A stretch of DNA of 64,000 nucleotides from an uncultured Candidatus Binatia bacterium (GTDB taxonomy: Bacteria > Desulfobacterota > Binatia > UBA9968 > JAJDTQ01): assembly GCA_965215605.1 (NCBI GenBank), contig OZ244070.1, positions 2,968,158 through 3,032,157 on the forward strand. The letters run 5' to 3'. A model generated the notes under the pieces. It did no database searches and was not told where the DNA came from. It saw only the letters and a program-made list of their open reading frames with translations. The translations under genes were made by a program, and so were the position numbers. Positions 4,242 through 22,877 of the stretch are shown here, in pieces (positions within the stretch are counted from its first letter, which is position 1; each line of letters opens with the position of its first letter).

Positions 4242-5866
4242 TGGTCCTCTTCTTCCACATCGCTGGCCTTGACGCGCCGTGACTTGAGCTTCTCGCCGGT
4301 CTCGAAGTAGCGTCCCTCCACCGCGAGCCTGGCTTCCTCGTCCAACTCGTCGTCCCACTGGCCCAGGGAGTAGCCGTACCATGGCATCTTGGGCTTGAGG
4401 GGCGGCAGCATGAACTCCTCCCACAGCTCCCGGGCGTGCTCCATGTATTCCCGCTTGGGCAGCGACACGGGCGGGAAGGGCTCCTTCTGGATGGCGTTGC
4501 ACAGCATGCCCGATTCGTCTGCCGGCAGGTGGTACGACACCACGTCGGTGCCCTTGTGATCGTCATTGTACAGGAACGGCGGGGCGTGGCCCTTTTCCAT
4601 GCCGCCGATGATCTGCACGTCCTGGTGGGGCTTCATGCGGTAGCACATGGCCCAGAACACCGCCGCCTCGTCCGACGGATCGATGTCCTCGTCCACCGCG
4701 ATGACGATCTTGCCGACGCCGGGATGGAAGGACGACGCGGCGTGGAGCGCGCGCCACACCTCGGCTTCCTTGGGCTTGCGCATCTGCACGATGACGAGCT
4801 TGTAGGTGTTGGTGAGGGGTTCGTGCATCTCCACCCGGATGACGCTGGTGATGCGGCAGTGGTCCCTCAGGTGCACCAGCATGAGCCGGTCGTAGCCGAT
4901 CTTGCGGATCACCGACGATTCGCTCGGGGTGAGCTGGCTGAGCCATGACACGTAGATGGCGTTCTTGCGGTGGGTGATGGCGGTGACGTCCATGAACGGG
5001 TTCAACTGCCGCGGATGCATGTAGCCGTGGGATTCTCCGAACGGCCCCTCGGGTTCCACGAACTCGGTGTTGAGGTGTCCCTCGATGACGATCTCCGATT
5101 CCGCCGGCACCTGCAGGTCCACGGTCTTGCACTGGGCCATGCGGATGGGCTCGCCCACGAAACCGCCGGCGATGGCCATTTCGTCCACGCCGTAGTCCAC
5201 CTTCTGCACCGACACGTAGGAGACCACCGGCGGCGCGCCGATGACCAGCGCCGCCTCCAGCGGCTCGCCGCGCTTCTGGGCGTTCTTCCAGTGCAGGTAG
5301 ATGTCCTGGCCCAGTCCGGACGGGAACACGCCTACCCGGGAGTTCGACTTGATCTGGCCCCGGTAGTTGCCGATGTTCCCGATACCGGTCTCGGGGTCCT
5401 TGGTGATCCAGTGGGAGCATGTGGTGTAGGGGCCGTTGTCGAACCCGGGGGTGGAGATGGGGACCGGGAACTTGTCCAGCCCTTCGTTCTCCACGGCATC
5501 GCCGGTCATCACCACTTCGTGGCACGCCGGGTCGTCCACCACCTTGGGCGTGATGGGATTGGAGAGGGCGTGCTTCCACTTCTTGTCCATCTCCTCGGCG
5601 CTGTTGCAGCCCATGCCCAGGAAGTAGATGGCCTTGCTGCCGGCCAGCGCGCCCACCACCACGGGGAAGTCGAACTTGCGCCCGCGGGAGTCTGTGACGT
5701 TGGAGAAGTACCACGCCTTGCGCTCCTCGTCGGGAATGCCGCCCCGGTACTGCCAGCGCACCAGCGGATGCAGTTCGGTGTCCTTGTTGATGGTCTGGTT
5801 GATGCGGCGCAGGTGCCCCGCCTCTTCGAGCATCCTCAGATGCTCATGTAGATCTGCATAACCCAT
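4238..5866 (-). CDS. UbiD-family (prFMN-dependent) decarboxylase
   Basis: Real start is MGYADLHEHLRMLEEAGHLRRI at ATG 5866, preceded by AGGAGG. UbiD-type body: HPLVRWQY, GPYTTCSHWITKDPETGIGNIGNYRGQ, EGPFGESHGY. The 634-aa track ORF over-extends upstream. Confidence 0.9.
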   Translation of the reverse strand: MGYADLHEHLRMLEEAGHLRRINQTINKDTELHPLVRWQYRGGIPDEERKAWYFSNVTDSRGRKFDFPVVVGALAGSKAIYFLGMGCNSAEEMDKKWKHALSNPITPKVVDDPACHEVVMTGDAVENEGLDKFPVPISTPGFDNGPYTTCSHWITKDPETGIGNIGNYRGQIKSNSRVGVFPSGLGQDIYLHWKNAQKRGEPLEAALVIGAPPVVSYVSVQKVDYGVDEMAIAGGFVGEPIRMAQCKTVDLQVPAESEIVIEGHLNTEFVEPEGPFGESHGYMHPRQLNPFMDVTAITHRKNAIYVSWLSQLTPSESSVIRKIGYDRLMLVHLRDHCRITSVIRVEMHEPLTNTYKLVIVQMRKPKEAEVWRALHAASSFHPGVGKIVIAVDEDIDPSDEAAVFWAMCYRMKPHQDVQIIGGMEKGHAPPFLYNDDHKGTDVVSYHLPADESGMLCNAIQKEPFPPVSLPKREYMEHARELWEEFMLPPLKPKMPWYGYSLGQWDDELDEEARLAVEGRYFETGEKLKSRRVKASDVEEEDH

Positions 5867-8691: not shown

Positions 8692-10167
8692 TCAGAGTGT
8701 ATCCGAAGCGGCGTGAGTCTTGCGCAGGGCCAGCGAGAAGCCCGGCTTGCGGATGTAGACTTGGGTGTACTCTTTCTGCTTCGTGAGTTCGTTGATGAGC
8801 CGCACCAGCGGCTGGCTCGCGCTCAGATACTCACGGGGCCGTCCGGCGTTCTGCAACTCCTCCACCGCCTCATCCCCCGCGAACACGCGTAGTATCAGCT
8901 CTTCATCGGAAATGGAGGAACTGCCGAGTTGCGCCCGCACCTCCGGCAGTGTCGGCTCCGGCTGCTGCCAGCCTTCCCAGTCCTTGGCCCGGGGCCGGCC
9001 GAGGATGCGGTCCTTGACGTCGGGGTCCATGAGCTCGGCGCCTTCCCGGCCCCAGATGCCCAGGGCGTACTGGATGGACTGGTCCGAGACCTGCTTGTAG
9101 CGTTCGCCGAGGATGATGTTGAAGGCCGCCTGGGTGCCGACGAACTGGGACAGCGGCGTCACCATGATGGGATAGCCCCACTCGGCGCGTATCCGCGCGG
9201 CCTCCTCCAGCGCCGCCGGCAGCTTGTCCTCCATACCCACCAGGCGGAGCTGGTGCACGAAGTTGGAGATCATGCCGCCGGGCACCTGGTGGGCGTAGAC
9301 GGACTGGTCGAAGGCCGCGGGCGCGCCCATCGGCAGCCGGTCCCGTTTGGCGACGAAGGTGAAGTGTTCCTTTACGGGCTTCAGCACCTCCTCGTCCACC
9401 GGCACCGTGTAACCCAGGGCCCGGAGGTTCTGCGCCATGTTGAAGACCGAAGGCTGGGCCGAGCCGTTGGCCAGAGGCGGCACGCCGGTGTGGATGGTGG
9501 TCATGCCGAGCTTGATGGCCTCGATGTAGTTGAGCGGCGCCAGTCCGTTGTTGCAGTGGGCGTGGAACTCCACCGGCGTGTCGCCGACGTTCTCCAGCAC
9601 GATGGGCACCAGGGTCCGCGTGCGCTCTGGAGTGAGCAGGCCGCCCACGTCCTTGAAGCAGATGCGGTAGGGATTCATGGCCGCGGCCTCCCGGGCCTTC
9701 CGCGCGTAGTATTCGTCGGTGTGTCTGGGCGACTCCGAGTAGATCAGGTTCACGACCGCGTCCACGCCCAGCCTGCCCAGCTCGTCCACGTCGTCCTTGA
9801 ACACGGTGTAGTCGTTCCAGGGATTCGACGTGCGGGTCAGCCGGATGCCGCTGTCCACCACGTGCTGGACCACGAGCCGCGCCACCGCCGTGGGCTTCTT
9901 CTCCAGCCCGCCCTTCACGCCCCCGTGAAGCCGGAGCGGGGTGTTGCGCGCGCGCCGGGCACCCTCCCGCAGCCAGTGCCAAGGGTCCTCCTTGTGCTCG
10001 CGCACGTACTTCTTGATCATGGTGGCGCTGAAGAACTCCATGGACTCGAAGCCCGCCTCGTCCATGCGCTCGATGGCTTCGAGCATGGCCGCGGTCTTCA
10101 TGTTGAAAGCCCAGAGGCTCTGGTTGCCGTCGCGCAGCGTGGTGTCCACGAATCTAACGTCGCTCAT
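8692..10167 (-). CDS. Carboxyltransferase (transcarboxylase 5S / OadA / PycB-type HMGL-like plus PYC_OADA domains), no biotinyl domain; paralog A
   Basis: MSDVRFVDTTLRDGNQSLW, CFKDVGG, EFHAHCNNGLAP. ATG 10167 is preceded by GAGGAG. The 972-aa track ORF is an off-frame read-through of paralog B. Confidence 0.85.
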   Translation of the reverse strand: MSDVRFVDTTLRDGNQSLWAFNMKTAAMLEAIERMDEAGFESMEFFSATMIKKYVREHKEDPWHWLREGARRARNTPLRLHGGVKGGLEKKPTAVARLVVQHVVDSGIRLTRTSNPWNDYTVFKDDVDELGRLGVDAVVNLIYSESPRHTDEYYARKAREAAAMNPYRICFKDVGGLLTPERTRTLVPIVLENVGDTPVEFHAHCNNGLAPLNYIEAIKLGMTTIHTGVPPLANGSAQPSVFNMAQNLRALGYTVPVDEEVLKPVKEHFTFVAKRDRLPMGAPAAFDQSVYAHQVPGGMISNFVHQLRLVGMEDKLPAALEEAARIRAEWGYPIMVTPLSQFVGTQAAFNIILGERYKQVSDQSIQYALGIWGREGAELMDPDVKDRILGRPRAKDWEGWQQPEPTLPEVRAQLGSSSISDEELILRVFAGDEAVEELQNAGRPREYLSASQPLVRLINELTKQKEYTQVYIRKPGFSLALRKTHAASDTL

Positions 10168-10175
10168 GGATCTCC

Positions 10176-11663
10176 TCAGGCGGCGGCCTCGTCCGCCGCG
10201 TCTCCGTCGGCGTTCCGTCCCAGGGTGAGGGAGAAGCCGGGCTTGCGGATGTAGACCTGGGTGTATTCCTGCTGCCGGGTGAGCTCGTTGACGAGCCGCA
10301 CCAGCGGCTGGCTCGCGCTCAGGTACTCCCGGGGCCGGCCGGCGTTCTGCAGCGCCTCCACCGCCTCGTCCCCCGCGTACACCCGCATGATCAGTTCCTC
10401 GTCGGACATGGACGGGCCACCGAGCTGCGCCCGGACCTCCTCGAGCGACGGGTCGGGCTGCTCCCAGTTCTCCCAGGCCCTGGCCCGCGGCCGCCCCAGG
10501 ATGCGGTCCTTCACGTCCGGGTCCATGTACTCGGCGCCCTGCCGGCCCCAGATGCCCAGGGCGTACTGGATGGACTGGTCGGTGACCTGCTTGTAGCGCT
10601 CGCCCATGATGACGTTGATGGCCGCCTGGGTGCCGACGAACTGGGACAGCGGCGTCACCATGATGGGATAGCCCCACTCGGCACGCACACGCGCGGCCTC
10701 CTCCAGCGCCGCCGGCAGCTTGTCCTCCATGCCCACCATGCGGAGCTGGTGCACGAAGTTGGAGATCATGCCGCCGGGCACCTGGTGGGCATAGACGGAC
10801 TGGTCGAAGGCCGCGGGCGCGCCCATGGGCAGCCCGTCCCTTTTGGCCACGAAGGTGAAATGCTCCCGCACCGGCTTGAGCGCTTCCTCGTCCACCTCTA
10901 CCGTGTGGCCCATGGCGCGCACGTTCCTGAGCATGTTGAAGATCGAGGGCTGGGCCGAACCGTTGGCCAGGGGCGGCACGCTGGTGTGGATGGTGGTCAT
11001 GCCGAGCTTGATGGCTTCCAGGTAGTTGAGCGGCGCCAGCCCGTTGTTGCAGTGGGCGTGGAACTCCACCGGGATGTCGCCGATGTTTTCCAGCACGATG
11101 GGCACCAGCGTGCGGGTGCGTTCCGGAGTCAGCATTCCGCCCACGTCCTTGAAGCAGATGCGGTAGGGCTTCAGGGCGGCGGCTTCCCGGGCCTTCTGGG
11201 CGTAGTACTCGTCGGTGTGCCGCGGCGATACCGAGTAGATGATGTTCGCCACGGCATCCATGCCGAGCTCGCGCAGGTCGTCCACCTCCTGCTTGAACAC
11301 CGAGTAGTCGTTCCACGGGTTGGAGTTGCGCGTCAGACGGATGCCGTTGTCCACCAGGTGACTGACCACCAGCTTGGCCACCGACGTGGGCTTCTTCTCC
11401 AGCCCGCCCCGGATGCTGCCGTGCATCCGCAGCGGGGTGTTGCGGGCGCGCCGTGTGCCTTCCCGGATCCAGCGCCACGGGTTCTCCTTGTGCTCGCGCA
11501 CGTACTTCTTGATCATGGTGGCGCTGAAGAACTCCATGGACTCGAAGCCCGCCCGGTCCATGCCCTCGATGGCCTCCAGCATGGCCCCGGTCCTCATGTT
11601 GTAGGCCCACAGGCTCTGGTTGCCGTCCCGCAGCGTGGTGTCCACGAAAGTGACGTCGCTCAT
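10176..11663 (-). CDS. Carboxyltransferase (5S/OadA-type), paralog B
   Basis: MSDVTFVDTTLRDGNQSLW, CFKDVGG, EFHAHCNNGLAP. Its stop lies 8 nt upstream of the paralog A start. Confidence 0.85.
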   Translation of the reverse strand: MSDVTFVDTTLRDGNQSLWAYNMRTGAMLEAIEGMDRAGFESMEFFSATMIKKYVREHKENPWRWIREGTRRARNTPLRMHGSIRGGLEKKPTSVAKLVVSHLVDNGIRLTRNSNPWNDYSVFKQEVDDLRELGMDAVANIIYSVSPRHTDEYYAQKAREAAALKPYRICFKDVGGMLTPERTRTLVPIVLENIGDIPVEFHAHCNNGLAPLNYLEAIKLGMTTIHTSVPPLANGSAQPSIFNMLRNVRAMGHTVEVDEEALKPVREHFTFVAKRDGLPMGAPAAFDQSVYAHQVPGGMISNFVHQLRMVGMEDKLPAALEEAARVRAEWGYPIMVTPLSQFVGTQAAINVIMGERYKQVTDQSIQYALGIWGRQGAEYMDPDVKDRILGRPRARAWENWEQPDPSLEEVRAQLGGPSMSDEELIMRVYAGDEAVEALQNAGRPREYLSASQPLVRLVNELTRQQEYTQVYIRKPGFSLTLGRNADGDAADEAAA

Positions 11664-11673
11664 GCGTTCGTCC

Positions 11674-13161
11674 TCAGACCGCGGCCCCGCCGGCCGTGTC
11701 TCCGTTGGCGCTCCGTCCCAGGGTGAGGGAGAACCCCGGCTTGCGGATGTACACCTGGGTGTATTCCTTCTGTTTGGTCAGCTCGTTGATGAGCCGCACC
11801 AGCGGCTGCCGCGCGCTCAGGTATTCCCGCGGCCGGCCGGACTCCATCATGGTCTTGACCTCGTCCACGCCGGCGTAGACCCGCAGTACCAGCTCCTCGT
11901 CCGAGATCGAGGGTCCGCCCAACTGGGACCGGAGCTCCGCCAGCGACGGCTCGGGCTGCTCCCATTCGGTCCACGCCTTGGCCCGGGGCCGGCCCAGGAT
12001 CTTGTCCTTGACGTCGGGGTCCATGAGTTCGGCGCCCTCGCGGCCCCAGATGCCCAGGGCGTACTGGATGGACTGGTCCGCCACCTCCTTGTAGCGCTCT
12101 CCGAGGATGACGTTGAAGGCCGCTTGGGTGCCCACGAACTGGGACAGGGGCGTCACCATGATGGGGTAGCCCCACTCGGCGCGCACCCGGGCGGCCTCCT
12201 CCAGGGCCGCCGGCAGCTTGTCCTCCATGCCCACGAGCTTGAGCTGGTGCACGAAGTTGGAGATCATGCCGCCGGGCACCTGGTGCAGGTACTGCCCGTG
12301 GTTGTATTCCACGGGCTTGCCGATGGGGAGCCCGTCGCGCTTGGCCACGTAGGTGAAGTGCTCCTCCACCGGCCGCAGCGCCTCCTCGTTCACCAGTGGC
12401 GTATGGCCCGTGGCGCGGATGTTCCGCACCATGTTGAAGATGGAGGGCTGCGCCGACGCGTTGGCCAGCGGCGGCACGCTGGTGTGGATGGTGGTCATGC
12501 CGAGTTCGATGGCCTCCAGGTAGTTGAGAGGCGCCAGGCCGTTGTTGCAGTGGGCGTGGAACTCCACCGGGGTGTCGCCGATGTTCTCAAGCACCAGCGG
12601 CACCAGGGAGCGGGTGCGCTCGGGGGTGAGCAGCCCGCCCACGTCCTTGAAGCAGATGCGGTAGGGCTTGATGGCCGCGGCTTCCCGCGCCTTCTGGGCA
12701 TAGTACTCGTCGGTGTGACGCGGCGACACCGAGTAGATCAGGTTCGCCACCGTCTCCATCCCCAGCTCGCGCAACCCCTTCACCTCTTCGCCGAAGACCT
12801 CGTAGTCGTTCCAGGAGTTGGAGGTGCGCGTGAGCGTGATGCCGCTGTCCACCACCTTCTGGATGATGAGCTTCAGGATCGACGCCGGCTTCTTCTCAAG
12901 CCCTCCCTTGAGTCCGCCGTGGAGCCGCAGCTCGGTCTTGCGGAGCCGCTTGGTGCCCTCCCGCAGCCACTCCCAGGGGTTCTCCTTGTGCTCCCGGACG
13001 TACTTCTTGAACATGTTGGTAACGAAGAACTCCATGGACTCGAAGCCCGCCTGGTCCATCTGCTCGGCGGTCTCCACCATGGCCGCCGTCTTCATGTTGA
13101 GCGCCCAAAGGCTCTGGTTGCCGTCCCGGAGGGTCGTATCGATGAATCGGATCTCGCTCAT
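11674..13161 (-). CDS. Carboxyltransferase (5S/OadA-type), paralog C
   Basis: MSEIRFIDTTLRDGNQSLW at ATG 13161. It carries the same catalytic motifs. Its stop lies 10 nt upstream of the paralog B start. Confidence 0.85.
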   Translation of the reverse strand: MSEIRFIDTTLRDGNQSLWALNMKTAAMVETAEQMDQAGFESMEFFVTNMFKKYVREHKENPWEWLREGTKRLRKTELRLHGGLKGGLEKKPASILKLIIQKVVDSGITLTRTSNSWNDYEVFGEEVKGLRELGMETVANLIYSVSPRHTDEYYAQKAREAAAIKPYRICFKDVGGLLTPERTRSLVPLVLENIGDTPVEFHAHCNNGLAPLNYLEAIELGMTTIHTSVPPLANASAQPSIFNMVRNIRATGHTPLVNEEALRPVEEHFTYVAKRDGLPIGKPVEYNHGQYLHQVPGGMISNFVHQLKLVGMEDKLPAALEEAARVRAEWGYPIMVTPLSQFVGTQAAFNVILGERYKEVADQSIQYALGIWGREGAELMDPDVKDKILGRPRAKAWTEWEQPEPSLAELRSQLGGPSISDEELVLRVYAGVDEVKTMMESGRPREYLSARQPLVRLINELTKQKEYTQVYIRKPGFSLTLGRSANGDTAGGAAV

Positions 13162-13275
13162 GGGGTCTCCCGAATGAAAACTGGTGCGGTGTTCCATATT
13201 GGCCGGTGTTGTTGCATACCGGCCAGTGTCAACTGCTCATAGTGGCGTGAATGCGGAAACGGGTCAAGGCGGCCC

Positions 13276-14708: not shown

Positions 14709-15569
14709 GTGAGCGTGTCCGCGTCGCGAAGCCGCCGGGCGGCTACCTGGGCGGCGCTTGGTCTGTCGGCGCTTCTGGTCCTGCTGACGTCCGGCCCCAC
14801 TTGGTCCGCGGAAGCCGCCGTTCATCTGGAGGGCCCGAAGATACAGGGCGGCCTGGTGCGCGGACGCGTGGCGCCGGGTTCCACCGTGAAATTCGAGGGC
14901 GAGCGGGTTCGGGTCTCGAAGGACGGCTGGTTCCTCATCGGGTTCGGGCGCGACGCGCCGCCGAAAGCCGTGCTGTCGGTGACCTTTCCGGACGGCCGCA
15001 GCCAGCACTACGGTCTGGCGGTGAAGCCCCGCAAATACCGCATCCAGCGTATCGATGGTCTGCCGTCGCGCAAGGTGACCCCCAATGAGGAAGACCTCAG
15101 GCGCATCCGCAAGGAGGTCGCCCTGGTGAGGCGGGCGCGCAAGGTGGACGACGCGCGGACGGACTTCCTCGGCGGCTTTCACTGGCCGGTGAAGGGCAGG
15201 ATCAGCGGCGTCTACGGCTCCCAGCGCGTCCTGAACGGCGAGCCGCGCCGGCCCCACTACGGCATCGACATCGCCGCGCCCAAGGGCACCCGGGTGATGG
15301 CACCCGCCGCCGGCGTGGTCACCCTCGTCCACCGCGACATGTACTTCTCCGGCGGCACCATGATCGTCGACCACGGCCACGGCCTCTCGTCCGCGTTCCT
15401 CCACCTGTCGCGCATCCTCGTGAAGAAAGGCCAGCGGGTGAAGCAGGGACAGCCCATCGCCGAGGTCGGCTCCACCGGCCGCTCCACCGGCCCTCATCTC
15501 GACTGGCGCATCAACCTGTTCGGCCGCCGCCTGGACGCGGCGCTACTGGTGGGGCCGATGCCCAAGTGA
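14709..15569 (+). CDS. M23-family (LytM-domain) peptidase with signal peptide
   Basis: HYGIDIAAPKGTRVMAPAAGVV..DHGHGLSSAFLHLS..GSTGRSTGPHLDWR. The signal is AATWAALGLSALLVLLTSGPTWSAEA. The start is tentative at GTG 14709; the track ORF starts at TTG 14631. Confidence 0.85.
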   Translation: MSVSASRSRRAATWAALGLSALLVLLTSGPTWSAEAAVHLEGPKIQGGLVRGRVAPGSTVKFEGERVRVSKDGWFLIGFGRDAPPKAVLSVTFPDGRSQHYGLAVKPRKYRIQRIDGLPSRKVTPNEEDLRRIRKEVALVRRARKVDDARTDFLGGFHWPVKGRISGVYGSQRVLNGEPRRPHYGIDIAAPKGTRVMAPAAGVVTLVHRDMYFSGGTMIVDHGHGLSSAFLHLSRILVKKGQRVKQGQPIAEVGSTGRSTGPHLDWRINLFGRRLDAALLVGPMPK

Positions 15570-15608
15570 AATTTGGAAGGTGACGAGAGGAAGCAGTTGC
15601 GTTACACG

Positions 15609-16076
15609 CTATAAATGGAGCGCTTTGGTCAGCGGGTCTCCACACTTGATCAGCACGGTAACCTTTCGTTGTCCTCGCAGTTGGATTTTTCTGGAGCGAA
15701 GCACCTTGAGGTCGTTTCTGTGGATGGTCTTGCCGTGCGCCAGGACCGGCACGAAGTGGAACGATATTCCCTCCGGGAGCCAGTTGTGAGCCGAGTCCGT
15801 GCCCCCCTCAAGTTGTTCCAACACCTCAGCGGCTTTCAGTCCACCGCTCTTCAACTCGATGGGCGCTATCCAGGTGGCGTCGCCTCTTTCTCCGAGGAAG
15901 AGGTAGTCACACCGTTTCTGTTGGCGCGGGAGTTCCAGCCCGTCGCAGTCCATGTCCACCAAGAGACGTGTCTCCGGTGCGCCCTTCAGGTCCACCCGGC
16001 ATCTGTCCTTGTTGCAGTGAATGGCATGACAGCAACCGGGAACGCGGCCGGCCACCGCCGCCACCGTTCCACTCAT
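15609..16076 (-). CDS. Hypothetical 155-aa protein; Cys/His cluster plus PD-(D/E)xK-like nuclease motif (candidate effector)
   Basis: ATG 16076 overlaps the ATPase stop (ATGA at 16073-16076). It has GCCHAIHCNKDRC near the N-terminus, then CDYLFLGERGDATWIAPIELKSG (D57...E74-x-K76). G+C is low, about 50-52% in counted lines. Confidence 0.7.
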   Translation of the reverse strand: MSGTVAAVAGRVPGCCHAIHCNKDRCRVDLKGAPETRLLVDMDCDGLELPRQQKRCDYLFLGERGDATWIAPIELKSGGLKAAEVLEQLEGGTDSAHNWLPEGISFHFVPVLAHGKTIHRNDLKVLRSRKIQLRGQRKVTVLIKCGDPLTKALHL

Positions 16077-17602
16077 CGGGGGTTACTGTCCTGGATGCGA
16101 TTGAAAATGCTTGCGCTCTCGTTGTACAGCGCCTCACTGACAGCATCGTAGTCGGTTGGATAGAGGCCGGTTTCCTCGTCCAGTTTCACTTCTTCCACCA
16201 CCGATCCCCTCGGGCGCCGCTTCGGCTTGAACATCCATGCCCCCACGTCCTCAGGGCGCAGGGCGACCTTGGCGTCGGCGGCTTTCTTGCCCCCCGCATC
16301 GGACAGTGCAGATCGCCGCACGATATTGGCGAGCTCCTCCAGCACCCATTCGCTGTGCGTCGTAACGATCACGCGGACGCCTGCGCGGACCAGCAGCGCG
16401 AGTTGACGCGTGAACTCGACCTGCATGGCCGGATGCAAGTGAGATTCCGGCTCCTCGATCATCAGCACGCTGTCGGGTCCGACCCTGTGGCGCAAGTACA
16501 GAACCACCGGTGCCAGTTCCGATACCATGGACGAAGTGTTCATGAGGGGCAGGTCGTCTTTCCAACCTTTTGGACGATACGCGAAGTGCGGATAACCGGT
16601 GACTTCAGACCGGTTGACCAGTACATGACCGCCCAGGACTGCGTCTTCGATACTTTTCGCGAGATCTTGTCGAGGCGCGCGGGCCCAGTAAAGTCGCGAC
16701 ACATTCCGTCGCGACGGACGGTCGAGTTCGATCAACTGTTGCAGGAAATCCGCCAAGACACCTGAAAGCATGGGCGTGCGCGCGGCTGGACGCAAGCCTG
16801 TCATGGCTGCGCTTCCGATCGTGGCGCTTACCACCGCACTGTGGGCATGCATGACGCCCGTCCGGTCGGCAGGAAGGTAATAGCCGTCGAGATGCAGCGG
16901 ACCAAGCACGTACGGGAGGATATGGTCGGTGAGATTGATGAGCAACTGAGTCAGTCGCCATTCCCGATCGGGTTCTCCTGGCTCGGCGACACGAGTCGGT
17001 TCGTTGCCAAAGGAGCCGAGATCGAGAGTGATTTCATCCCGTTCGGTTATCGGAATGGCCATGTCTTCGGATAGGGTCGCCGTATATTCCGCGTCTCGCC
17101 CGCCGAGCAACAACCGGTGTTCGGCCATCCCCGAATCATCGGGGAGCCGTTTTCGCAACACGACGTTCGCGAAGTCGTGGCTTCCCTTGCGGATCAGCCC
17201 GCGGAGATCGCGGATGCCGAAGCATCGGACGATCTCAAGGGCCAAGCGGTCACCGTGGGATTTGATTGCGGTACGAACAGCATCCGTGATTCCACCGGGT
17301 AGGACAACGCGTCCTCCGAAACCTGGCTTCGCCATGTCTTCAGCGGTCCGCTTTGCGAATGCGGCCAACGTGTTGACGGTTTTCCGAGGCAGTTCGGGAC
17401 GCTCCTCGAATACTCGCCAATGGCGGAACCCGGCGCTGAAATGCCGGTGCAGCGCATATATCAGGATCGCCAGATAGGATTTGCCGGTGTTGCTCGGTCC
17501 GACGAATACGGTAAGCGGGCGCAGGTCCACTCTGGCTTCGACGATAGGGCCGAAATCCGCTACTCTAACTTCGAGAGTGTCTCGTGGAGGTCGATCCTTC
17601 AT
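16073..17602 (-). CDS. ABC/AAA_15-AAA_21-type ATPase (defence-system-like)
   Basis: Walker A is GPSNTGKS (17477-17500). Walker B/D-loop is VLMIEEPESHLHP (about 16433-16468). The H-loop is VIVTTHSEW. The likely start is ATG 17602; the track ORF begins at TTG 17626. Confidence 0.9.
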   Translation of the reverse strand: MKDRPPRDTLEVRVADFGPIVEARVDLRPLTVFVGPSNTGKSYLAILIYALHRHFSAGFRHWRVFEERPELPRKTVNTLAAFAKRTAEDMAKPGFGGRVVLPGGITDAVRTAIKSHGDRLALEIVRCFGIRDLRGLIRKGSHDFANVVLRKRLPDDSGMAEHRLLLGGRDAEYTATLSEDMAIPITERDEITLDLGSFGNEPTRVAEPGEPDREWRLTQLLINLTDHILPYVLGPLHLDGYYLPADRTGVMHAHSAVVSATIGSAAMTGLRPAARTPMLSGVLADFLQQLIELDRPSRRNVSRLYWARAPRQDLAKSIEDAVLGGHVLVNRSEVTGYPHFAYRPKGWKDDLPLMNTSSMVSELAPVVLYLRHRVGPDSVLMIEEPESHLHPAMQVEFTRQLALLVRAGVRVIVTTHSEWVLEELANIVRRSALSDAGGKKAADAKVALRPEDVGAWMFKPKRRPRGSVVEEVKLDEETGLYPTDYDAVSEALYNESASIFNRIQDSNPR

Positions 17603-17745
17603 GCCTTGGCTACACTCTTCCAGCAATCACACGGGCTCATCGGATGCCTTCCCTGATGGTAGATCACCGGAGCGGGAGCGCAAATCCAGCCCAATCTGCA
17701 GGGGGATGCGCGACCGCACCGGATCACGGGCGGCAGATGACGGAG

Positions 17746-18978
17746 CTAACCGGTAGCCTGCCGCTTCGGGTTTGCCTCCGCGGCAGCGTGGGCCTTCTGG
17801 AAATCTTCCTCGTCGAAGTTGTAGAGCCCGGCGCCGCCCATGAAGATGGCCGCGGCGGTCGCCCGTGACACGTTGTTCAGGAGGTTGTTGGAGACGTTGG
17901 GGAAGTTCGAGTCGAAGTGCGGGTAGTCGGTGGAGATGCACATGCGGTCCGCGCCGATGAGCTCGGCGGTGCCGGCGATCTCGGGCTCGCTCCCTTCCAC
18001 CGCGGCCCAGCAGTTCCGCTGGAAGTACTCCTTGGGGGTCAGCGACAGGTACGGCGCGTGGGAGTCGCGATAGTTGGCGTAGTCCCACTCGATGCGCGTC
18101 AGTATGCCCGGCACCCAGGAGTTCTGGGCTTCCAGGTAGCCCACCCGCAGCTTGGGATGGAACTCGAAGACGCCGCCGATGATCATGGCGATGAGCGCCT
18201 GCTGCATCTCGATCCAGTGGCTGGCGACGTGGCGGTAGAACCGGTTCTCGCCGTACAGATCGTTCATGTGGGAGTTCCACGCGCCGGTGCCCTCATGGAA
18301 GCACCAGGACACGTCCAGCTCCTCGTGCAGGCTGTAGAGAGGGTCCCAGTAGTTGGAGTGCCAGAAGTGGCCGTTGATCATGTTGGGCCGGATGAACGAC
18401 GCCACCGCCCCGAGCTCCTCCACCGCCCGCTTCAACTCGTGGCACGCCAGGTTCACGTCGTGCAGCGGCAGCATGGCGGCGAACTTCATGCGGTCCGGGG
18501 AGTACTGGCAGAAGTCGTGGATCCAGTCGTTGTACGCACGACTCAGGGCGTGCGACATGTGCGGGTCCATGTCGTCCCGCGCCAGCAGCCCCAGCCCGCC
18601 GGTGGGGAAGAGCACGGCGATGTCGATGCCTTCCATCTCCATCCCCATGACCTGGGCTTCCTCGTCGTATCCCCGCTCGATGGCGAAGTCCAGGCGCCCT
18701 GTGTCGGCGATGCGGGAGGCGGACAATACCCCGGTGGCGGCCCCCATGACGGGCCCCGTGGCCTTGGACGACGCGGCCTTCTTGCGGTGTTGCTGCAGCT
18801 CCGAGTCCGCGCCGGTAGGCAGCCCGTCGATGGTCCAGGTGCGCCGGCTGATCTTTCCCTTGCCGTCCACCGCCCAGGTCACGCGGTGCTTGAAATCGGG
18901 GTCCAGGTATTTCTCCAGCAGGTCGCCGGGTTCCTGAATGTGCATGTCGCTGTCAACGAAACGCAGGCCGTCTTTCAT
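17746..18978 (-). CDS. Amidohydrolase_2 family protein
   Basis: Start MKDGLRFVDSDMHIQEP follows AGGAGG at ATG 18978. Motifs: GIDIAVLFPT, AYNDWIHDF, CISTDYPHFD. Confidence 0.85.
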   Translation of the reverse strand: MKDGLRFVDSDMHIQEPGDLLEKYLDPDFKHRVTWAVDGKGKISRRTWTIDGLPTGADSELQQHRKKAASSKATGPVMGAATGVLSASRIADTGRLDFAIERGYDEEAQVMGMEMEGIDIAVLFPTGGLGLLARDDMDPHMSHALSRAYNDWIHDFCQYSPDRMKFAAMLPLHDVNLACHELKRAVEELGAVASFIRPNMINGHFWHSNYWDPLYSLHEELDVSWCFHEGTGAWNSHMNDLYGENRFYRHVASHWIEMQQALIAMIIGGVFEFHPKLRVGYLEAQNSWVPGILTRIEWDYANYRDSHAPYLSLTPKEYFQRNCWAAVEGSEPEIAGTAELIGADRMCISTDYPHFDSNFPNVSNNLLNNVSRATAAAIFMGGAGLYNFDEEDFQKAHAAAEANPKRQATG

Positions 18979-20805: not shown

Positions 20806-21198
20806 TCAAGCGGCCATGGTGGCTACGTCGTATCGCGGGATATGGTGGTCGCGGGTGACGAGTATCAATCCCTCGGCTTGGGCCTGGGCGATCAGAAAAC
20901 GGTCGAACGGGTCACGGTGGTGCATCGGCAGTTTGCCCGCCTGCTCGGCATGATGGAAGGTCAACGGCAGGTGGGTGAAGCGCTTTTCTTCAACCATCGC
21001 CGACAGGTTGTCCGGCGCGGTCATGGTCCCCTTCGCCCGCTTGACGGTGACCTCCCAACCGGTAATGGCGCTGACGAAGACGTCGTTTCCGGAGTCGGCG
21101 ATCGCCGAACGGGCCGCCTCGGTCAGCCGCGCGACATCGGTGACCCACCATATGAATGCGTGGGTGTCCAGCAACAGCCGCACGACGTCAGTCCTCAT
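20806..21198 (-). CDS. vapC: Type II toxin, PIN-domain ribonuclease VapC
   Basis: LLLDTHAFIWW...FVSAITGWEV...HRDPFDRFLIAQA...LVTRD carries the PIN acidic residues. Confidence 0.85.
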   Translation of the reverse strand: MRTDVVRLLLDTHAFIWWVTDVARLTEAARSAIADSGNDVFVSAITGWEVTVKRAKGTMTAPDNLSAMVEEKRFTHLPLTFHHAEQAGKLPMHHRDPFDRFLIAQAQAEGLILVTRDHHIPRYDVATMAA

Positions 21199-21442
21199 CC
21201 GGGAAGATCTTCGAGTTCTCGATCAGGTCCATGAGTTCCTCGTCGGGCTCGTCAAAGTCGGGGGCCATCCATATATGCCCTTCCAGCCCACCAGGCTTTC
21301 GTTCCTCCGCCGGTCGTTTGTACGGCTTCAGCACAAGATACGGTTCGCCGGCCTTGGCGATCACGATCTCCTCGCCTCCCCAAGCCAACTTGCCCAACCT
21401 GGAAAGTTGGGACTTCGCCTCGTGCATGTTCACCTGTTTCAT
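21188..21442 (-). CDS. Phd/YefM-family antitoxin
   Basis: The N-terminus MKQVNMHEAKSQLSRLGKLAWGGEEIVIAKAGEPYLVLKPY is Phd-like. It overlaps vapC by 11 nt. Confidence 0.8.
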   Translation of the reverse strand: MKQVNMHEAKSQLSRLGKLAWGGEEIVIAKAGEPYLVLKPYKRPAEERKPGGLEGHIWMAPDFDEPDEELMDLIENSKIFPDED

Positions 21443-21498: not shown

Positions 21499-21885
21499 TC
21501 AAGATGGAGATCCGACGCGAGACACTTGGTGAGCCAGGCCAAGCCCGTCGGCTGCCGCTCTCAGACGTTTGTCTCGCGTCCACAGTCGCGCTGGGGGAGC
21601 GAGGGCCGTGGCCGCCAGCAAATGCATGTCAATGTAGCCGATGCCCCGTCCCATCAACCCGTTTCGCCCAATGAAATAAAGCACTTCGGAGTCTTCCGCG
21701 GCGGGGATGGCGGGCAGGTCCTGCAACATCGCCAGGATCTCTTGGCGTCGGGCAAGGTTGCCGCAGGCCAACTCGCCGATGACGAAGGGATGGACAAGCG
21801 CTTGATCGGCGTCGAGCATGTGCGCCAATGCGCGGCTTCCGGCGCGCAGATGCTCGATCCATACCGACGTATCGACCAGGATCAT
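21499..21885 (-). CDS. vapC: Type II toxin, PIN-domain ribonuclease VapC
   Basis: MILVDTSVWIEHLR...HPFVIGELACG...GIGYIDMHLLAAT...LWTRDKRL. Confidence 0.85.
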   Translation of the reverse strand: MILVDTSVWIEHLRAGSRALAHMLDADQALVHPFVIGELACGNLARRQEILAMLQDLPAIPAAEDSEVLYFIGRNGLMGRGIGYIDMHLLAATALAPPARLWTRDKRLRAAADGLGLAHQVSRVGSPS

Positions 21886-22094
21886 TGGCGGGACGGACCC
21901 TCGCCGGCGGAGCGGCGCCGTGGGACCGGTTGCAAATCAGCTTGACTGCCGCCGAGCTTGGCGAGCCGTCGTGCGCTTTCCCGCTCCACGAGGGCTCGAA
22001 GGGCTTCACGAATCAGCGCCGGTTTGGCGGTGATGTTGGTTAGCTCACGAGCGCGCGCCAGCAGATCGTCGTCTATGTTCAGGGTGGTTCTCAT
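21882..22094 (-). CDS. vapB: VapB-type antitoxin (70 aa)
   Basis: MRTTLNIDDDLLARARELTNITAKPALIREALRALVERE, starting at ATG 22094. A 4-nt overlap joins it to vapC. The 166-aa track ORF over-extends upstream. Confidence 0.75.
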   Translation of the reverse strand: MRTTLNIDDDLLARARELTNITAKPALIREALRALVERESARRLAKLGGSQADLQPVPRRRSAGEGPSRQ

Positions 22095-22208
22095 AACGCT
22101 GCTTCGAAGCAAGACCGAACCAAAGGCCAATCGTATGAAGGCCGATAGTAGCATCAGTGATGTCAGAATCAATGTCAACGGTCCCGGCGGCAGGGTGTAA
22201 AATCCTGA

Positions 22209-22877
22209 TCCTGCCTGCGCTTCCTCTTCGCCCTCCCGCGCTACTCGGAAGACCTGTACTTCGCCCTTGAAAGCGATACGGACCGCTATGATCTGCGTGC
22301 TTGGCTGAAGGCCATTCGCGCGGAGTTGTCCCGCGAAGGCTACAGCGTCGGTCTCACCGTTCGGGACCACAATCCGGTTCATAGCGCGTTCGTGCGCTTC
22401 CCGGGGGTTTTGTACGACGCGGGCCTCTCACCCCATCGAGAAGAAAGCCTTGCCGTCAGGATCGAGGTCGATACGCGCGCTCCGGCCGGGGCCGTCCTGG
22501 AGACCCACCTCGTGCGGCGCCACGTGACGCTACGGCTGCGTCACCACGACCGCGCGTCGCTGCTCGCCGGCAAGCTGCACGCGATCTTGCAGCGTCCCTA
22601 TGCCAAGGGAAGGGACCTGTACGACCTGATCTGGTACATGAGCGATCCGACCTGGCCCGCGCCCAATCTCAGGCTGCTCAACGCGGCCTTGCGGCAGACT
22701 CATTGGTCGGGCGGAGTGCTGCGGGACAACACCTGGCGGGAGACGATGATCCAGCGTCTCGACGCCTTGGCGTGGGACCGGGCGGCCGCGGATGCGCGCC
22801 CGTTCCTGGAGCGGGAAGAGGATGTGGAGTTGCTGACTCGGGAGAATGCCGTGCGGCTTTTGACCGAGCACCCGTGA
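22209..22877 (+). pseudogene. N-terminally truncated AbiEii/AbiGii-family nucleotidyltransferase toxin remnant
   Basis: The frame opens right after TGA 22206-22208 with no start codon. It reads ..PRYSEDLYFAL.. where the family motif is R-x-SEDLDF, so the second Asp is replaced by Tyr. The C-terminal LLAGKLHAILQRPYAKGRDLYDLIW is typical of the family. The upstream GG(T/S)AL part is missing. Confidence 0.65.

Follow-up and report, generated by a model that had tools for sequence, protein, structure and literature searches.

The window analysed here is a 64,000-nt stretch of DNA from an uncultured Candidatus Binatia bacterium (assembly GCA_965215605.1, contig OZ244070.1, positions 2,968,158 to 3,032,157 of the forward strand), which carries on its minus strand a two-gene cassette composed of an ATP-binding cassette (ABC)-type ATPase gene and, directly downstream, a gene for a cysteine-containing protein of 155 amino acids (aa). 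The open reading frame (ORF) of the small protein (15609..16076, minus strand) is real. It begins with ATG, and its translation is identical to that in an earlier note on this DNA, in which the protein was proposed to be a candidate effector. The positions given there for residues 57–76 (15849-15908) and residues 15–26 (CCHAIHCNKDRC, 15999-16034) are correct. It is likely that the protein is a small Mg2+-dependent PD-(D/E)xK effector belonging to a mobile two-gene anti-phage module of the WonAB/PDC-M47/PD-T4-4 type.

A word-indexed search with the 155-aa protein recovered 173 relatives, all of about 155 aa and without Pfam domains. An exhaustive profile search extended the family to 1,336 cluster representatives (50% identity) at E ≤ 1e-3, with 805 at E ≤ 1e-10, and nearly all of them were again about 155 aa in length. 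The cluster names of the family members were uninformative, a contig look-up with the exact protein sequence returned no record, and the comparison with PDB sequences yielded nothing useful by single sequence and only noise by profile. Residue conservation was counted in an alignment of 124 diverse members (28–50% identity to the query). All 124 carry E74, and D57 is found in 122, Q88 in 121, D43 in 119, and K76 in 118, and the complete catalytic set of D/D/E/K/Q is kept in 96. The D57/E74/K76 residues singled out in the earlier note are thus conserved across the homologs, and D43 and Q88 extend the motif.

Among the cysteines, C26 is found in 123 of the 124 members, C56 in 121, C16 in 116, C145 in 115, C21 in 96, and C44 in 66 (with His in 15). 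The constant cysteine core of the family is C16, C26, C56, and C145, and C56 forms part of an R-C dipeptide directly before D57. The N-terminal C-C-H-x2-H-C-x4-C cluster, previously described as a possible small zinc-binding knuckle, did not hold as a conserved unit, since only C16, C21, and C26 are kept from it, and C56, C145, and C44 had not been listed. A CCHC-type zinc knuckle (C-x2-C-x4-H-x4-C) was rejected because C15, H17, and H20 are variable (the commonest residues at the positions of H17 and H20 are L/I and R/K) and the spacing is instead C16-x4-C21-x4-C26. The presence of C21 goes along with that of C44, with both present in 178 sequences, neither in 23, and only one of the two in 35 and 9 (Fisher p = 5e-10, uncorrected for phylogeny). 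This shared gain and loss across the family suggests that C21 and C44 may be partners, either as a disulfide or as two ligands of one site, apart from the core of C16, C26, C56, and C145.

The AlphaFold2 (AF2) model of the effector, built with 40 homologs, has a mean pLDDT (predicted local distance difference test) of 95.1 and a predicted template modeling (pTM) score of 0.91. Its N-terminal part comprises a short helix (4–9) and a small hairpin (21–23 and 26–29) bearing C21 and C26. The predicted core consists of strands 36–41, 58–64 (D57 lies just before or at its start), and 67–76 (E74-L-K76 at its end), followed by a helix bearing Q88 (82–99), a strand (111–114), a second helix (120–128), and a three-stranded element (130–144) that leads to C145. 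Two isolated bridge residues assigned by DSSP, 17 and 148, adjoin C16 and C145, a hint that these cysteines may be close in space. The order of the elements is that expected of a minimal PD-(D/E)xK core, with a Cys-rich hairpin in place of the canonical first helix. In this confident model, D57, E74, and K76 lie on the expected strands with helix 82–99 next, in agreement with the minimal core recognized earlier from the letters. In the Foldseek search of the PDB, the sub-significant matches were headed by Bse634I (E 0.044, TM 0.32), followed by FokI, BspD6I, EcoO109I, MspJI, and Cdn1. The BFVD list contained “Restriction endonuclease” entries (probability 0.96–0.97, E ~0.02), UL24, VRR-NUC, and RecU. 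Restriction endonucleases and other PD-(D/E)xK proteins dominate the top of both lists, which is consistent with the assigned fold but not decisive. Since these matches are sub-significant, the main basis of the fold assignment is the sequence profiles and the geometry of the motif, and to a lesser degree structural superposition.

The closest tested relative of the protein is WonB. WonAB is an operon of the WASA-1 prophage of V. cholerae that pairs an OLD-like ABC ATPase with a 16-kDa PD-(D/E)xK variant (PMC12137116). The nine WonB (“Novel REase”, where REase stands for restriction endonuclease) sequences taken for comparison from Table S4 of that paper have invariant D44, C54-D55, E70-L71-K72-G73, and Q82. 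The alignment of the 155-aa family with WonB by hhalign scored 95.4% (E 1.9e-8, 92 columns, 24% identity), and D44, C54, D55, E70, L71, K72, G73, and Q82 of WonB correspond to D43, C56, D57, E74, L75, K76, G78, and Q88 here. The family hidden Markov model (HMM) matched all nine WonB sequences, with scores of 10–28 bits. A second link leads to PDC-M47, a “phage defence candidate” in PADLOC that derives from a guilt-by-embedding study and has candidate status (bioRxiv 10.1101/2024.01.29.577857). The PDC-M47B model is matched by 74 of the 124 family members (best 4.7e-10), and a few members weakly reach PD-T4-4_B, Cas4c, or REase_II. When the family was aligned by hhalign with 38 relatives of the PDC-M47B protein of Annamia, the score was 97.1% (E 5e-11, residues 24–96 only), and the invariant D, D, E, K, and Q of PDC-M47B aligned with D43, D57, E74, K76, and Q88. 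Reciprocal plain HMM searches connect the family with the nine WonB and 38 PDC-M47B sequences at 10–48 bits. Since PDC-M47B and WonB match each other at only 71.9% by hhalign, the 155-aa family lies between the two in profile space. It is reported that K71A in WonB, the counterpart of K76, abolishes both defence and toxicity (PMC12137116). The profile homology to WonB and PDC-M47B, the aligned catalytic residues, and the essential lysine of WonB all support the earlier suggestion that the protein may be the nucleolytic or toxic output of the ATPase.

The partner gene was predicted as an ORF of 517 aa, but its TTG start at 17626 is probably wrong. The ATG at 17602 (M9) is the probable true start and gives a protein of 509 aa, because the homologs begin there and M9 is nearly invariant as their first residue. 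The protein matches AAA_15/AAA_21 of Pfam. In 51 homologs, GPxNTGKS (K49), YLPxxR (R255), SSMVSE, EPExHLHP (E392), and TTHS (H424) are invariant, and within the Walker B/D-loop, E392, P393, E394, H396, L397, H398, and P399 are invariant and E391 and S395 nearly so. The best PADLOC match is PD-T4-4_A (9.3e-35), with partial coverage (319–508 to 266–455 of 460), and PDC-M47A follows at 6e-25 in two partial stretches (best 330–436). Further matches are NsnB, AriA (1.5e-19), Old, GajA, and PtuA. The AF2 model (pLDDT 79, pTM 0.83) retrieved PtuA of Septu/retron I-A first in Foldseek (E ~4e-11, probability 1.0), then SMC and Rad50 heads (to 1e-9), and by sequence profile against PDB chains the matches to OLD, UvrA, PtuA, and GajA are confined to the Walker B region. 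The partner is an ABC ATPase on the ABC/SMC-head fold, with a Walker A, a Q-loop region, a signature-like motif, a Walker B/D-loop, and an H-loop. BLASTP with a WonA homolog aligned the Walker A and residues 361–513 (signature region, Walker B, and H-loop) to the C-terminus, including DEETGL, and K49, R255, E392, and H424 correspond at the motif level to K34, R182, E300, and H333 of WonA, all of which are reported to cause loss of defence when mutated. The Walker A, Walker B, and H-loop mutants of WonA are defence-dead, and both wonAB genes and ATPase activity are required for defence (PMC12137116).

The core of the ATPase is interrupted by inserts of low conservation (0.24–0.41 across the family in the bins of the insert regions, vs 0.7–0.86 in the core). 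Between the window and its nearest relative, locus L002, the inserts (3624-4187 in L002) are only 16–36% identical, whereas the flanking genes are 87–96% and the nuclease 92% identical, and there is no nucleotide match to L002 across ~16911-17435. This divergence suggests allelic diversification or recombination of what may be a sensor surface.

The association of the two genes was examined in 77 loci, 76 from species-representative genomes and one from a metagenome. In all but one of the 77, the gene immediately upstream, in the same orientation, encodes a homologous ATPase (76 loci), so the pairing is nearly obligatory and the effector is tied to the adjacent ATPase, as had been proposed. 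The exact 4-nt overlap between ATPase and effector is shared by 53 of the 76 pairs. No third conserved gene was found around the pair in these loci, the other frequent clusters being antisense shadow ORFs. All 76 genome loci belong to uncultured metagenome-assembled genomes (MAGs) of at least 10 phyla, with sequences 31–92% identical, including Binatia, Latescibacterota, Acidobacteriota, Gemmatimonadota, Rhodothermales, Alpha- and Gammaproteobacteria, Dehalococcoidia, Spirochaetia, Entotheonella, and others. The mix of phyla resembles that of marine sponge microbiomes, the host origin of individual MAGs being judged from phyla alone, and such microbiomes have been reported to be enriched in defence and toxin-antitoxin (TA) genes (PMC8163846). 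Because of this resemblance, the distribution implies that the family spreads laterally within sponge-type communities.

Two of the loci are probably decayed copies. In L077, a degenerate nuclease gene fragment (5001-5390) lies beside an insertion sequence-type transposase without an ATPase; it is a second copy, an intact pair (L039) being present in the same MAG. Of the ATPase in L003 (4645-5004), only the last ~120 residues are detectable. The features of the cassette in the window are collected in Table 1.

Table 1. Positions of the two genes of the cassette and of their main features within the 64,000-nt window.
Feature	Position	Strand	Basis
Gene for the probable small PD-(D/E)xK-type effector, WonB/PDC-M47B-like family	15609..16076	-	ORF, family, AF2 model, hhalign
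C145, conserved C-terminal cysteine	15642..15644	-	Conservation; family-specific, region unaligned with WonB or PDC-M47B
Q88, on the helix after the ExK strand	15813..15815	-	Aligns with invariant WonB Q82 and PDC-M47B Q110
Predicted catalytic core D57...E74-L-K76 (strand 2, hairpin, strand 3)	15849..15908	-	Conservation; aligns with WonB D55/E70/K72 and PDC-M47B D79/E96/K98
C56, immediately N-terminal to catalytic D57	15909..15911	-	Conservation; C-D pair also invariant in nine WonB sequences
C44 and C21 codons	15945-15947 and 16014-16016	-	Co-varying pair
D43, extra conserved acidic residue after strand 1 (VDMDC)	15948..15950	-	Aligns with invariant WonB D44 and PDC-M47B D59
N-terminal cysteine segment C16-x4-C21-x4-C26 (small beta-hairpin 21–29)	15999..16031	-	Conservation, AF2 secondary structure
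ATGA: effector start codon overlaps ATPase stop codon, translational coupling	16073..16076	-	Sequence; alike in 53 of 76 related loci
ABC-type (OLD/PtuA-like) ATPase gene, ORF of 517 aa	16073..17626	-	Pfam, PADLOC, Foldseek
C-terminal extension (~residues 440–517, “DEETGL” motif), candidate nuclease docking site	16076..16309	-	WonA homolog alignment
H-loop, T422-THS425	16352..16363	-	Invariant in 51 homologs; aligns with WonA TTHS
Walker B/D-loop, L388-MIEEPESHLHP399	16430..16465	-	Aligns with WonA FIEEPEAHIFP
Hypervariable inserts (~residues 76–125, 151–250, 301–325), candidate sensor surface	16652..17401	-	Family conservation, comparison with L002
Walker A, G43-PSNTGK-S50	17477..17500	-	Invariant in 51 homologs; aligns with WonA GPQAAGKS

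Genes for an M23 peptidase and an amidohydrolase flank the pair in the window. The region of the cassette (15400-17800) has a GC content of 0.59–0.61 and a GC content at third codon positions (GC3) of 0.67–0.72, and the flanking peptidase and amidohydrolase genes have values of 0.65–0.69 and 0.87–0.90, respectively. This atypical composition fits horizontal acquisition. At a distance of 3–6 kb from the cassette there is a small group of TA and abortive-infection elements. It includes two PIN-toxin/antitoxin (VapBC-type) pairs (20806-21442 and 21499-22382, minus strand), with Phd/YefM-like and VapB-like antitoxins, and an AbiEii nucleotidyltransferase toxin gene (22326-22877, plus strand) that is apparently truncated at the N-terminus. 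Elsewhere in the window (~8692-13197, minus strand), three tandem paralogs of HMGL-like/PYC_OADA carboxylase subunits of ~480–507 aa were found, each starting with MS(D/E)(V/I)xF(V/I)DTTLRDGNQSLWA, the first of which had been fused by the ORF finder into a 972-aa artefact with a GTG start.

The homology with WonAB and the structural analogy with PtuAB lead to a proposal for how the module may work. The ATPase would be co-translated with the effector through the ATGA overlap and probably dimerizes head to head, and the dimer may hold the nuclease on its C-terminal extension, as the nuclease of WonAB is predicted to bind its ATPase's C-terminal extensions in their dimerized form (PMC12137116). 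The hypervariable inserts are the likely infection sensor, and ATP binding or hydrolysis may then license the nuclease. Cleavage of nucleic acid would be carried out by D43/D57/E74/K76 with a divalent metal, with Q88 on the following helix, and would arrest the infected cell in the manner of abortive infection. Over-produced WonB is toxic only when active WonA is present, the genomic DNA stays intact and translation stops, and an rRNA or tRNA target was suggested by the authors (PMC12137116). By analogy, the target here may be not chromosomal DNA but an RNA that belongs to the translation apparatus, with a DNA-cutting, restriction-like mode as a serious alternative for the substrate. C16, C26, C56, and C145 are probable ligands of a structural metal (Zn or Fe-S) that would link the N-terminal and C-terminal elements with the catalytic strand.

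Several observations weigh against the assignment to a WonAB/PDC-M47/PD-T4-4-type defence module. Pfam, NCBIfam, and PHROGs gave no match to the 155-aa family, and the query itself reached the PDC-M47B HMM with an E value of only 0.0012 over 41 residues (profile positions 72–112 of 186). Only the core is covered by the homology to WonB and PDC-M47B; the Cys segment at the N-terminus and residues ~130–155 do not align. The fold search placed restriction endonucleases at the top, but it gave no match at E ≤ 1e-3 in either PDB (best 0.044) or BFVD (best 0.0057), with TM values of 0.3–0.4, so the proposed fold lacks a significant structural match. The cassette also occupies the same locus in L002, and because of this synteny it is not a recent insertion. 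Beyond the ORF, the residue conservation, the gene pairing, the homology to WonB and PDC-M47B, the ATPase motifs and fold, and the atypical composition, all of which were observed directly, the defence function, complex formation, activation route, substrate, and metal binding are extrapolated.

Among the other explanations, the most substantial is that the complex recognizes and cuts invading or damaged DNA directly, as a restriction-like system in the style of OLD, Gabija, or Septu. The best structural neighbors of the effector are DNA restriction endonucleases, the ATPase fold is nearest to the DNA-associated ABC ATPases PtuA, SMC, and Rad50, and PD-T4-4 has been grouped with nuclease-NTPase systems that cleave DNA (bioRxiv 10.1101/2025.07.10.664194). 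The intact genomic DNA and blocked translation reported for WonB argue in the other direction (PMC12137116), as does the lack of a methyltransferase or other self-protection gene conserved beside the pair. We regard direct DNA targeting as possible but less likely than not to be the mode of this system. A classical TA pair, in which the nuclease is a free toxin that the ATPase only neutralizes (AbiE or type IV TA style) without sensing infection, appears quite improbable. The ATPase does match AAA_21, whose description reads “putative AbiEii toxin, Type IV TA system”, the coupling between the two genes is tight, TA modules lie nearby, and WonB over-production is toxic. This toxicity, however, requires WonA and its ATPase activity, and simple sequestration is therefore ruled out according to the authors (PMC12137116); in addition, the invariant catalytic motifs together with the hypervariable inserts fit an active sensor and not a passive antidote.

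Two further possibilities concern the nature of the small protein itself, and both seem very unlikely. A Cas4/RecB/AddB-like iron-sulfur nuclease working with an SMC/Rad50-like ATPase in DNA end processing or repair, as a housekeeping function, could account for the four near-invariant cysteines flanking the PD-(D/E)xK core, the conserved Gln after ExK, the weak Cas4c matches of 2 of the 124 members, the presence of AddB low in the Foldseek list, and that of Rad50/SMC among the fold matches of the ATPase. The Cas4/AddB-type iron staple (C...CxxCx5C + QhxxY) was rejected, since the cysteines lie at 16, 26, 56, and 145 and the L-E-G-G stretch after Q88 contains no Tyr. No coiled coil and no Mre11, helicase, or CRISPR neighbor was found at the loci; the patchy distribution over phyla and the atypical composition are as in mobile defence genes, and the profile links to defence families are stronger. 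The protein could also be a catalytically inactive REase-fold adaptor or nucleic acid-binding subunit, with the output residing in the ATPase, as conflict systems are known to include inactive REase domains, a weak match to Pfam NA-iREase3 was obtained for one member, and the structural matches are weak. Against such a role stand the full D/D/E/K/Q set in 96 of 124 members with E74 in all, the essential equivalent lysine of WonB (PMC12137116), and an ATPase that has no other effector domain.

A bolder extension of the WonAB-type reading joins three elements. C16, C26, C145, and above all C56 would form a redox- or metal-sensitive (Fe-S/Zn) gate, the enzyme would target RNA and arrest translation, and the module would spread laterally between distantly related members of marine-invertebrate (sponge-type) microbiomes. 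This combination is offered as speculation and is rather unlikely as a whole. If the cysteine gate were true, the effector would integrate, besides the signal from the ATPase, a second one such as cluster integrity or the oxidative or metal stress of an infection.

A large family of more than 1,300 clusters at 50% identity has thus been missed by Pfam, NCBIfam, PHROGs, and, in practice, PADLOC, and it can now be assigned to the WonAB/PD-T4-4/PDC-M47 group of small nucleases controlled by ABC ATPases. The earlier note had recognized no named family for the protein; this is out of date, as named relatives now exist in WonAB (2025), PD-T4-4 (2022), and PDC-M47, although Pfam, NCBIfam, and PHROGs lack the family itself. 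The intermediate profile position supports the union of WonB, PDC-M47B, and this family in one superfamily, and the group now reaches uncultured lineages, among them Binatia, Latescibacterota, Acidobacteriota, Gemmatimonadota, and Dehalococcoidia. The conserved cysteine beside the catalytic aspartate and the family-specific four-Cys core are undiscussed in published work, and cysteines are not discussed in the WonAB paper (PMC12137116). Also undiscussed is the allelic hypervariability of the ATPase inserts in near-identical genomic backgrounds, which offers a handle for mapping sensor recognition.

Among known systems, Septu PtuAB and retron I-A (Ec78, Eco7) provide the closest solved structures to the ATPase, and in them an ABC ATPase oligomer likewise controls a small nuclease. 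Their nuclease, however, is an HNH protein (PtuB) and not a PD-(D/E)xK enzyme, the sequence likeness to PtuA is limited to the Walker B/D-loop, and no retron or reverse transcriptase was found at the loci here. PARIS (AriA-AriB) and OLD/Gabija similarly couple an OLD-type ABC ATPase sensor to a nuclease, but their effector is a TOPRIM protein, either fused or separate and of ~35 kDa, and they have no small REase-fold protein. The PARIS effector is reported to attack tRNA (PMC11464382), which parallels the translation block by WonB.

PD-T4-4 of E. coli, an experimentally selected anti-T4 defence system (Vassallo et al., 2022, PMC9519451), also combines an ABC ATPase with a small PD-(D/E)xK nuclease, and PD-T4-4_A is the best PADLOC match of the ATPase in the window. 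It is reported that PD-T4-4 forms higher-order complexes (bioRxiv 10.1101/2025.07.10.664194). Membership of the effector in PD-T4-4_B was rejected, as the query has no HMM match at E ≤ 1 and only three to four of its 124 relatives match (E ~1e-3). Membership in PDC-M47 was likewise rejected because only a small part of the HMM is covered, and the effector is a relative of PDC-M47B and not a member. PDC-M47B is longer (~185 aa) and carries other invariant cysteines, and the residue that precedes its catalytic Asp is Ala and not Cys. PDC-M47A has ~460 aa and a profile nearly identical to that of PD-T4-4_A, which the ATPase of the window matches only partly. A tblastn search with the family gave no match in phages and three weak matches in plasmids, one of which, in Annamia, is a true PDC-M47. 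On this Annamia dubia plasmid (AP025633.1, locus L079, 2490-4429), a full-length PDC-M47 pair (A 1.5e-231, B 2.8e-61) is annotated as hypothetical, and its two genes overlap as they do here. The A protein of this pair also matches PD-T4-4_A at 1e-160; since it matches both, the ATPases of PDC-M47 and PD-T4-4 are near-identical in profile, while the B proteins differ.

WonAB shares several features with the cassette. Both consist of two genes, the ATPase first and then a nuclease of ~140–170 aa, and both ATPases have a Walker A, a Walker B, an H-loop, and a C-terminal DEETGL extension. N-terminal cysteines are present in many WonB sequences too. The family differs from WonB in its C26 and C145, in the C-terminal three-stranded element (130–144), and in lacking the conserved “DGC”, and its ATPase is ~80–120 aa longer than WonA and has other inserts. 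Unlike WonAB, the family has so far been found in uncultured MAG lineages only, and its likeness to WonB is seen at the profile level only. The signature peptides PIELKSG and VDMDC were absent from the portion of WonAB Tables S4/S5 examined, and the published wonB quantitative PCR primer had no match in viral contigs. The WonAB authors relate their system to operons of the “OLD-ABC ATPase + novel REase” type, surveyed by Krishnan et al. (2020), and to PD-T4-4 (PMC12137116). The kind of system and its logic have therefore already been described in WonAB, PD-T4-4, and PDC-M47, and the present family is a divergent, cysteine-rich variant of it that is abundant in uncultured lineages. What is new is the size of the family, its place as a bridge from WonB to PDC-M47B, and a conserved Cys-Asp pair combined with a four-Cys core and a hypervariable candidate sensor.

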